A DNA stretch of 64,000 nt from Escherichia coli (GTDB lineage Bacteria > Pseudomonadota > Gammaproteobacteria > Enterobacterales > Enterobacteriaceae): the NCBI RefSeq assembly GCF_003334305.1, contig NZ_QOWS01000019.1; one strand, given 5' to 3'. Made by a program: the position numbers. Shown here piece by piece: positions 48,001 through 51,000 of the stretch. The first letter of the stretch is position 1, and the number at the start of each line of letters is the position of its first letter.

Positions 48001-51000
48001 ACAAAACAGACAATAATCAGGGCAGCAGTAATCAGAGTCAGAACAGGAGGAAAAAGAGAATAATCAAAGGGAAGGTGATGTGATTTCTGACAGGTCATAA
48101 ACAGAGAAGGCGGGGGAAAAGAACGGGCGCCGCAGGCGCACGTTCATCCCCGTTCCCGGAGGGAAACGGCCTTCCTGGCAGTCTGGTTGTTCATGCCCGC
48201 ACAATGCCAGCAAGGAGAAAGGGGCCACCGGCGAACCAGCAGCCCCTTTATAAAGGCGCTTCAGTGCAGTCAGACCAGCATCAGCCCTGAAAAGGCGGGC
48301 CTGCGCCCGCCTCCAGGTTGCTACTTACCGCTGGATTCGTAAGCCAAACTTGCCGTAACCTCCCTGTATCCGTCCTTCAGCCGGACTTCGCACAGACGAT
48401 TCCGGGTCAGGAGTGTGAATATTAACAACGTGCAGCACACGATTAATACGCACCAGATAAGGGCGTTTCCCGGTAGTTTCATGGTTTACTCCTCCTTGCA
48501 TTAAGCACGGTAAGAGGCCATACTGTTGTTGATCAGACATACAGGGGGCCTCGTGGGTTAATGAAAAATTAACTACGGGGCTTTCTGCCTTCTGCCACAC
48601 AACACGGTAACAAACCACCTTCACGTCATGAGGCAGAAAGCCTCAAGCGCCGGGCACATCATAGCTCATATCCCTGCACGCTGACCACACTCACTTTCCC
48701 TGAAAATAATCTGGTCGTTCAACCAGTTCACGGGTAATCCGTGTGATTATTGCCGCATCACGCTGCCTCCCGGAGTTTGTTCGGCACCATCCACCGCTCC
48801 ATCTCACGGACAGCATGACCGGCCTCTCTGGCTGCCAGACTGGCTTCCGCGATAACCTGCCAGAATGGCATATCCTGCCACTGCCAGCGTTCCATTCCGG
48901 CCAGTGACGGAAAACGCTCGCCCCACTGCCAGAACAGGGGTTCCAGGTCATGCTCTGCCACCCGGTCACTCCAGCGTGCATGCCAGCTTCCGACTGTTTC
49001 CGGTGAATGAAATGCCAGTTCGATTTCAGCCTGAGCAACCAGCACCTGGTACGCACGGGCTTTCTGCTCTGCCTCCCTCGCTTGCTGGCGGCTGTACTTC
49101 TGCATGACCAGCGCGGATTTATGGCGACTGCGTTCCCTGACACGAAACCGCACCGACGGGAACAAGCGTTCTGCTGCATCGCCGGGAAGGGGAAGGAGGC
49201 AGACCTCGCCCTGTGTTTCAATCAGCACATCGATGGCACACAGCCACTGAAGACGGTTGCCGTGCAGTTCTTCTGCGGTCAGGGACGGCATGAAAAATCG
49301 CAGGTCAGACAGCGAAATCCGGCGGCTTCCGTTCAGACAGCGGAAAAATGCTCCCGCATACGGATATTCCGCCAGCGTGTTTCCCTGATGGCGGCGTTTT
49401 TCCGTCTCCGCCACCGCCCGCCATGCGGCCTGTTGCTCTGTGCTGAGGGGAACCAGTGCCCGTGAACGTGCGTTCATACCTGACCTCCTTCCGCCATCAG
49501 GATATGGATGATGTCGTTAACGCTGTACCCCTGCGCATCCAGTGACGCCGCCAGTGCCAGTGAATGGCTGACTGCTTCCGGTGCAAACCGCCGCTGTACC
49601 TGAACCACCGCAAACGGCTCACCACCGGCATTCACCAGAACCAGCACCCAGACCTGGGAGACATCACCCGGTGAACATAACGCCAGGTGAAAACGTTCGT
49701 GGGCAGGCGTGAAACGGACCTGGACGGGGAAAAAGCCGCCGAACTCGCTGCCGTACTCGCCATTCATCGTCCAGTTGTCCGGCGCATCCAGTTCCCGCAT
49801 CACGGCGTGTGTCAGCTCACGGCGTTCATCACTTCCGGCAGCCCTGATATCTTCATATTCCTGTGCGTTCATGGTCTGTAATACATTCAGGGTCAGTTCA
49901 GTTTTCATCACGGTATCTCCCTTGCTGCTGCCCCGTCTCCGGCGGGGCGGTGTGGTTGTTCATCAGGCGGCATCAGCCAGGTTATCGGTGCGTTCAGTGG
50001 TATCCGTCTGTGGATGTGGTGCACACATCCAGCCAGGCACCCAGCGGTTGTCTTTCATATGGTGCTCTGCATGTTCAGCCGCATCACCTTTCTTCATCTT
50101 CTCTGCATCCCGTGCGGCACCGGACAGTCCGGCATCATTCAGAGCTGCGATAATCTGCGGCTTTTTCAGGTGTCCGAAGAAGTTTGCTTTTGTCGGCTGC
50201 CACCAGTCACGCATGTGAAAACCGATGGCGCTCTCCAGCGTGTCCAGCGGGCTGCGTGACGTGTGACCACACTCGCGGGTCTGAACGCCGTGGATGCTGC
50301 ACGCGGTGCAGAAACTGAGCAGGGATAACAGCACCTCCTGACTGAGTGACAGGAACGTCGTCATGTCCCGTGACCATCCCTCCGGTAACAGGGCCGCAAG
50401 ACGGGCTTTTTCTGCCATCATCGCCATGAACGCGGCACCTTCCTTCCCTGACGGCGCATCGCTGGTCAGCGAATAATGTTTACATTCCAGGCTGATTTGT
50501 GCTGGTTTACTGTACGCTCCGCTGCCAAACACATTCAGGCAGAGCGTCCATGCCAGCAGTGCCAGGGATTTGTCCGGTTGCTGCATGAGTGCCGCCTGGA
50601 CTGCCAGCGTGCGTTCGGAAGACATTTTCGTCAGCAGTGGCAGACTGATTTCCTCCACTGATGCTTTCTCCTGCACCTGTTCCGTGCGGTCAGCGTCGTC
50701 AGCCGCGTCATCCTCGCTGCGCAACTGCACACCACGCTGGACACACACATTACCGTAACGCCAGGACACCACCACACCGCTTCCGGTACGCATCTCCGGC
50801 GTCCACGCTCTGACCTTCGCCATGCAGCGCATCAGCTTCATTTCTGCTTCCAGCAGGTCGGATTCCTCACACTGGTTTTCCAGCGCGTCGTAACGCGTCA
50901 TCAGTTCGTTCAGGCGTTCTTCTTCCGCCTCCGTCAGCACCGCGTCCGGCTCCGGCAGACAGCGGTATGTTCCGGCATCCTCACGGCACTCACCGACAGG

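Follow-up and report, generated by a model that had tools for sequence, protein, structure and literature searches.

We analyzed the hok locus that follows the psiB and psiA genes in a 64,000-nucleotide (nt) stretch of Escherichia coli DNA (NCBI RefSeq assembly GCF_003334305.1, contig NZ_QOWS01000019.1; hereafter, the window). With a probability of about 0.9, as judged from sequence, the locus represents a hok/mok/sok cassette of the flm type, canonical and self-contained, i.e., a type I toxin-antitoxin system for post-segregational killing, that lies within an IncF plasmid's leading region. This assignment relies on the scores of the Hok, Mok, PsiA, and PsiB products, all of which are above the respective family cut-offs, on matches to the Pfam HOK_GEF domain and to the Rfam sok family, and on the promoter, the tac and fbi elements, and the terminal hairpin of the hok mRNA. 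Nothing in the sequence contradicts it. The transcript ends, the killing activity, and any read-through from psiA are what we infer.

The window is part of an IncF plasmid and covers its leading region. Positions 47100-50000 are 100% identical to many E. coli IncF plasmids, such as pECOS88 (NC_011747), and one location accounts for at least 80% of this interval, which contains ygeA, Frpo1, hok, psiA, and psiB, in at least 3485 plasmid records.

The hok/mok/sok cassette

The cassette comprises the following features:

48321-48482, minus strand: hok toxin gene, 53 amino acids (aa); NCBIfam NF007279 (Hok family), 98 bits (cut-off, 73), E=2e-28
48325-48540, minus strand: mok/flmC frame, 71 aa, overlapping hok; NCBIfam NF010277 (equivalog), 153.5 bits against 110
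48658-48687, minus strand: sigma-70-like promoter of the hok mRNA; -35 TGGTCA, 18-nt spacer, -10 TATGAT (promoter scan)
48217-48651, minus strand: full-length hok mRNA, about 435 nt, with predicted ends; the 5' end is GGCGCTTGAGG (tac, 48642-48651)
48218-48249, minus strand: terminal hairpin of the hok mRNA, 14-bp stem followed by UUUCUCCUU
48497-48596, plus strand: putative Sok antisense RNA gene; TTGCAT (48497-48502), 17-nt spacer, CATACT (48520-48525)

The product of hok also matches the Pfam domain HOK_GEF (PF01848, E=1.2e-15), and the gene has an AGGAGG Shine-Dalgarno sequence on its 5' side. Exact copies of the Hok and Mok proteins are each found on at least 1000 contigs, under the names Hok, Mok, or FlmC. 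At the RNA level, positions 48480-48652 match the Rfam family RF01794 ('sok') with 92.7 bits (gathering score, 59; E=3e-20); this match is unique, and no second hok/sok locus is found in the window.

The promoter of hok is the only minus-strand sigma-70-like site that the scan detects in 47000-53600, and its hexamers are identical in plasmid F (reference sequence NC_002483, locus L003). It is located 7 nt upstream of GGCGCTTGAGG at 48651, the sequence with which the hok mRNA of plasmid R1 begins; the +1 position at 48651 is set by this homology. In the minimum free energy (MFE) structure of the RNA folded from 48651 to 48217, nt 1-10 (tac) pair with nt 388-397 (fbi, 48255-48264) with the probability of 0.98-1.0. 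The tac and fbi elements are conserved in the copies of the cassette in F, in the Enterobacterales bacterium CwR94, and in an IncI2 plasmid, and the terminal hairpin has compensatory changes in the latter two.

The predicted Sok RNA extends from about 48532 to about 48596 (about 65 nt, both ends being approximate); it would consist of a single-stranded 5' tail and a hairpin (the fold has -28.9 kcal/mol), and is complementary to the mok start region. The hexamers of its putative promoter occupy the same aligned position as in flm of F, and the Rfam sok match spans this stretch. We placed these hexamers by the alignment with F and by the arrangement in R1.

By the mechanism established for R1 and F, the weak constitutive sigma-70 promoter would drive the synthesis of a hok mRNA, stable and about 435 nt long, in which pairing of the 3' fbi with the 5' tac would block both translation and Sok binding. 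Slow trimming of the 3' end would open the RNA, and the abundant, unstable antisense Sok would bind to the mok start region, whereupon the duplex would be destroyed. In cells that have lost the DNA, Sok would decay, mok and hok would be translated, and the membrane toxin would kill the cell. Production of hok mRNA is not equal to production of the toxin.

Relatives of the cassette and its association with psiA

The counterpart of this locus in F is flmA/flmB/flmC (F leading maintenance, or stm), which occupies the same position, in the order psiA, flm, Frpo1, ygeA, ygeB, gene X, oriT. The two loci are 93% identical overall, with hardly any difference in the promoter, 5' leader, fbi and 3' untranslated region (UTR), terminal hairpin, and downstream terminator. 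Divergence is far greater in the sequence that codes for mok and hok and around the mok start, where Sok RNA would pair (the Hok proteins are about 70% identical). The flm-type allele of the window is distinct from that of F and probably has a different Sok specificity. The same allele is found at 99% identity or more in at least 228 plasmid records. With hok/mok/sok (parB) of R1, the cassette shares the general architecture, i.e., mok overlapping hok, the predicted antisense Sok, the tac/fbi pairing, and the 3' hairpin, although the alleles are different.

Outside IncF, the psiA-hok pair is seen again in CwR94 (locus L018, 368-1466), where hok/sok follows psiA by about 250 nt on the same strand. 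The CwR94 Hok is 83% identical to that of the window, and the homology of the cassette begins exactly at the hok -35 hexamer. In the IncI2 plasmid, a cassette whose Hok is 87% identical is located beside repA, with no psiA, and the homology is limited to the segment from -10/+1 through the terminal hairpin. Conversely, no hok is found near psiA, within the flank examined, in eight psiA loci with 53-57% PsiA identity (for L017, the flank is too short to tell). In leading regions of the IncI/K type (ColIb-P9/pESBL type), the ParB-like gene, psiB, and psiA are ordered and oriented as in the window, but an ORF (open reading frame) of 198 aa that overlaps psiA comes next, and then ardA, with no hok within 7 kb. 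Linkage of psiA and hok is therefore a property of IncF and of one distant lineage, CwR94, and is not conserved wherever the operon occurs.

Two observations weigh against the self-contained cassette as the whole account of the locus. The Sok promoter hexamers are weak in comparison with the consensus (about 7/12), and the adjacency of psiA and hok in CwR94 recurs beside a psiA that is only 35% identical to that of the window, which might point to a functional connection and not to chance synteny alone. The hok module is nevertheless autonomous, and its link to psiA is synteny of the IncF lineage with one distant recurrence; the psiA-hok-Frpo1 arrangement is conserved IncF synteny.

The position of the cassette may have no function at all: a mobile hok cassette could have landed harmlessly after the last gene of the operon and spread with the successful IncF backbone. 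The presence of the cassette in unrelated contexts agrees with this, as do its mosaic alleles, in which the coding part is much less conserved relative to F than the near-identical flanks, the variable junction with psiA (an ORF present or deleted, insertions of IS elements), and the lack of hok in most sampled psiA lineages. The recurrence of co-oriented psiA and hok in CwR94 speaks against a position without function, and so does the enrichment of toxin-antitoxin genes in leading regions, always in the orientation in which the transferred strand (T-strand) is the template (Samuel 2024). We regard a functionless position as possible, on the whole unlikely.

Several other loci in our sample require separate mention. 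Those from Klebsiella pneumoniae (L019) and Enterobacter asburiae (L020) were considered as instances of hok without read-through, and were rejected as truncated loci in which an IS has replaced the hok leader. In these IncF plasmids, homology to the window starts only at the Shine-Dalgarno sequence of hok, with an IS element just upstream (about 3430-3500 in each); they lack the hok promoter, the start of mok, and the Sok gene, while the hok ORF and the fbi region are intact. Genes of psiA 96-98% identical to those of E. coli IncF plasmids are found on short contigs assigned to an 'Oscillibacter' metagenome-assembled genome (MAG; L004), to Streptomyces morookaense (L005), and to a 'Collinsella' MAG (L006). 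Hok is also present on the first two of these, about 283 nt after psiA and identical to the R1 sequence, and L006 is too short to show it. All three contigs are almost certainly enterobacterial plasmid contamination of the assemblies.

Gene order and the Frpo-type repeats

The neighboring features of the leading region are as follows:

49474-49908, minus strand: psiB, SOS inhibitor; NCBIfam NF010255 (PsiB), 278.7 bits (cut-off, 100)
48758-49477, minus strand: psiA; NCBIfam NF010258 (PsiA), 416.9 bits against a cut-off of 243
49963-51921, minus strand: ParB-like gene
48117-48145, minus strand: second intrinsic-terminator-like hairpin, GAACGTGCGCC-TGC-GGCGCCCGTTC followed by TTTT
47440-48066, minus strand: repeat copy 1, putative single-stranded DNA (ssDNA) promoter of the Frpo1 type, upstream of ygeA (repeat families, alignment)
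47135-47422, minus strand: ygeA, directly downstream of repeat copy 1
52831-53456, minus strand: repeat copy 2, putative ssDNA promoter of the Frpo2 type, immediately upstream of ssb
56090-56713, minus strand: repeat copy 3 (repeat families, alignment)
45290-45303, plus strand: oriT nic sequence, GTGGGGTGT/GGTGC, exact match

On the minus strand, the genes follow one another in the order ssb, ParB-like gene, psiB, psiA, and hok, the last overlapped by mok/flmC; the PsiA protein is 97% identical to that of F. The first-pass annotation of this DNA had put a Hok-family gene about 275 bp downstream of psiA on the same strand, at the distal end of the psiB-psiA operon. The distance is exact, as 275 nt separate the end of the psiA stop codon (48758) from the hok ATG (48482), both genes being on the minus strand, and the distal location is correct as a statement of position. 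Repeat copy 1, which was said to follow hok directly, is indeed the next feature in the sense that no gene intervenes, but it is separated from the hok stop codon by 254 nt. This gap is filled by the hok 3' UTR, with fbi and the terminal hairpin, and by the second hairpin with its T-run; about 150 nt separate the end of the hok mRNA from the repeat.

The presumed transcription-unit layout, read from the sequence, is Frpo2, ssb, yfjA, yfjB, psiB, psiA, hok/mok/sok with its own promoter, two terminators, Frpo1, ygeA, ygeB. The ssb...psiB-psiA unit presumably starts at repeat copy 2, and the cassette would then stand at the 3' end of a Frpo2-led ssb-yfjA-yfjB-psiB-psiA unit, ahead of the two terminator hairpins and Frpo1. 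The psiB-psiA-flm/hok-Frpo1 order is already known and has been printed (Couturier 2023; Samuel 2024).

The counterparts of the repeats in F and ColIb-P9 are Frpo1 and Frpo2, which are also referred to as ssi or as class 1 ssDNA promoters. Copies 1 and 2 are directly upstream of ygeA and ssb, respectively, as in F, and the plasmid in the window differs from the F/ColIb-P9 set in having the third copy. On the plus strand, each copy forms a hairpin of about 325 nt, with folding energy of -97 to -102 kcal/mol and z-scores of -9 to -10. For copy 1, the hairpin at 47468-47791 has a DNA fold of -101.8 kcal/mol (z=-9.1), and no shuffled sequence folded as well; for copy 2 the values are -97.3 kcal/mol and z=-9.3. 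The double-strand consensus scan finds no -35 or -10 boxes in copy 1. The apex of the copy 2 hairpin (52924-53120) is only 71% identical to that of copy 1 (47533-47729), yet the two hairpins fold equally well (-97 vs -102 kcal/mol), which argues for compensatory change and for selection on the ssDNA structure.

Copies 1 and 2 are direct repeats 5.39 kb apart. Repeat copies share identical runs of about 90 bases and blocks of up to 96% identity, and recombination between Frpo1 and Frpo2 would delete ssb, psiB, and psiA together with hok/sok. It has been suggested that flm, which lies between these two repeats in F, guards against such recombination (Couturier 2023): cells with the deletion would be killed, and the leading region would be retained. 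Between Frpo repeats, IncI-type plasmids, which have no hok there, are known to have gained or lost a leading module of 9.7 kb, and in some plasmids hok-mok is found between such repeats (Venturini 2013). The segment between copies 2 and 3, on the other hand, would be unguarded, given the single sok match in the window. We view a guarding role as a tentative proposal with less than even odds; it is compatible with the self-contained cassette and not exclusive of it.

Each Frpo copy has further features in common. A GC-rich hairpin with a T-run precedes every one of them on the minus strand (48145-48117, about 53520-53490, and about 56790-56760), so that the whole looks like a repeated module of a terminator, then a T-rich tract, then the ssDNA-promoter hairpin. 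Just upstream of the large hairpin, each copy also has a small ORF on the minus strand (47898-48098, 53288-53467, and 56545-56703). The N-terminal part of these ORFs is hydrophobic, resembles a transmembrane segment, and has diverged, whereas all three have the same C-terminus, FPGVPLAGRAVVNGASGAVSALAGFHP; they are annotated as 'putative transmembrane protein' or as hypothetical. They could have arisen as a side effect of the T-rich tract beside conserved DNA, or else encode a real small protein.

Two Rfam antisense RNAs are found elsewhere on the plus strand of the window, AS-pc01 (55868-55969, 105 bits) and AS-pc02 (13056-13238, 195.7 bits). Both were first described on plasmid pHK01. AS-pc01 is located just downstream of Frpo copy 3 and is antisense to the first gene of the copy-3 unit.

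Transfer polarity and possible read-through from psiA

The nic sequence of F, GTGGGGTGT/GGTGC, is found on the plus strand; the plus strand is therefore the one transferred, with the leading region entering first. It follows that transcription of ssb, psiB, psiA, and the hok mRNA uses the T-strand as template. Sok, in contrast, is templated by the complementary strand, so that the hok mRNA alone, and not Sok, could be transcribed from the single strand as it enters. The same orientation has been recorded for flmC, a leading-region family of 2672 members (Samuel 2024).

Between psiA and hok, there is one weak hairpin, with a 5-bp stem and a T-run, at 48726-48702 on the minus strand; the fold of this spacer is not significant (z=-1.2), and the hairpin is conserved neither in F nor in CwR94. 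We considered a strong terminator at this place and rejected it, since the sole candidate is weak and neither proves nor excludes termination. The hairpin is contained in the following feature:

48691-48735, minus strand: remnant of an ORF, the last 14 codons (TRELVERPDYFQGK and stop) of a 115-aa ORF

The spacer at 48691-48757, between psiA and the hok promoter, is what was left by a deletion, and the same deletion is found in F. The intact 115-aa ORF (phrog_27524, function unknown) is located between psiA and hok in E. albertii (L007, 6624-6971) and in at least 338 plasmid records. This ORF and the one that follows psiA in IncI/K-type plasmids have no homology to each other.

These data bear on the earlier proposal that hok is a member of the psiB-psiA operon. 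The gene is on the same strand, is downstream, and no convincing terminator separates it from psiA; however, it has a promoter of its own, and the linkage is not conserved. Read-through from psiA into hok is plausible, on sequence grounds, because the two genes are on the same strand, are both templated by the T-strand, and have only a weak non-conserved hairpin between them. It may add some hok RNA but would not be required for its synthesis.

A stronger version of this proposal would make hok the last gene of a zygotically induced transcript that starts at Frpo2 and runs through ssb...psiB-psiA, so that recipients acquire the hok mRNA before the DNA is double-stranded. No strong minus-strand terminator is found in the Frpo2-hok interval, and the two terminator hairpins come only after hok. 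Nor does the promoter region of hok, folded as ssDNA, contain a Frpo-like hairpin through which it might be active in the single-stranded state (z=-1.8), which would leave read-through as the sole source of hok RNA at that stage. The return of hok after the very divergent psiA of CwR94 is consistent with such a transcript, and flmC has been listed among the genes downstream of Frpo2 (Couturier 2023). There are, however, considerable difficulties. The gene has a promoter of its own, and elsewhere the cassette works as a unit; some IncF plasmids have the additional ORF between psiA and hok, and the IncI/K-type plasmids and eight other psiA lineages do without hok. The time window for early read-through is tight, because RNA polymerase has to cover about 4.2 kb from Frpo2 to the hok +1, and, in F, the DNA at psiA needs about 155 s to become double-stranded (Fraikin 2026, preprint). 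Our literature search found no experimental report of psiA-hok read-through, nor any direct test of their co-transcription or of hok in early transconjugants. Such a transcript seems to us unlikely, and we continue to favor the cassette that is expressed from its own promoter.

Even if read-through RNAs were produced, they would not yield the toxin directly. In modeled RNAs that begin within psiA and extend to the hok terminator, the tac/fbi closure is seen in the MFE structure for all four psiA-derived 5' ends tested, and its pair probability, computed for two of the four, is 0.69-0.95. Full-length and modeled read-through hok RNAs are thus both predicted to keep the inert, 5'-3' closed fold and, by the established hok mechanism, read-through RNAs with this closure should be translationally inert until processed.

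The suggestion that hok would be expressed in every new recipient is true of any plasmid-borne hok/sok, which is expressed in every transconjugant once the DNA has become double-stranded, and for this reason the location distal to psiA adds nothing unless expression is early.

A case in which early expression would matter can be outlined from the strand asymmetry of the locus. In the ssDNA phase, which lasts 2-3 min, the toxin mRNA made by read-through from Frpo2 would be the sole possible product of the locus, because the plus strand is the template for hok and not for Sok, and because the hok promoter cannot form on ssDNA. Recipients would be pre-loaded with hok mRNA, stable but inert, and Sok would be made only after synthesis of the complementary strand. 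If the plasmid were destroyed by restriction or CRISPR before Sok is established, the recipient would be killed, i.e., it would pay an 'abortive-establishment' penalty. We consider this scenario quite improbable.

As it stands, the analysis confirms a textbook IncF layout that is common to thousands of sequenced plasmids, and in this respect matters little. Killing upon failed establishment is the first of three general roles proposed for toxin-antitoxin genes of leading regions (Samuel 2024), and the abortive-establishment penalty, if true, would provide a specific mechanism for it. A plasmid-addiction module would then double as an entry-commitment device that punishes the recipients that destroy incoming DNA, which would bear on the question of how leading regions overcome host defence.

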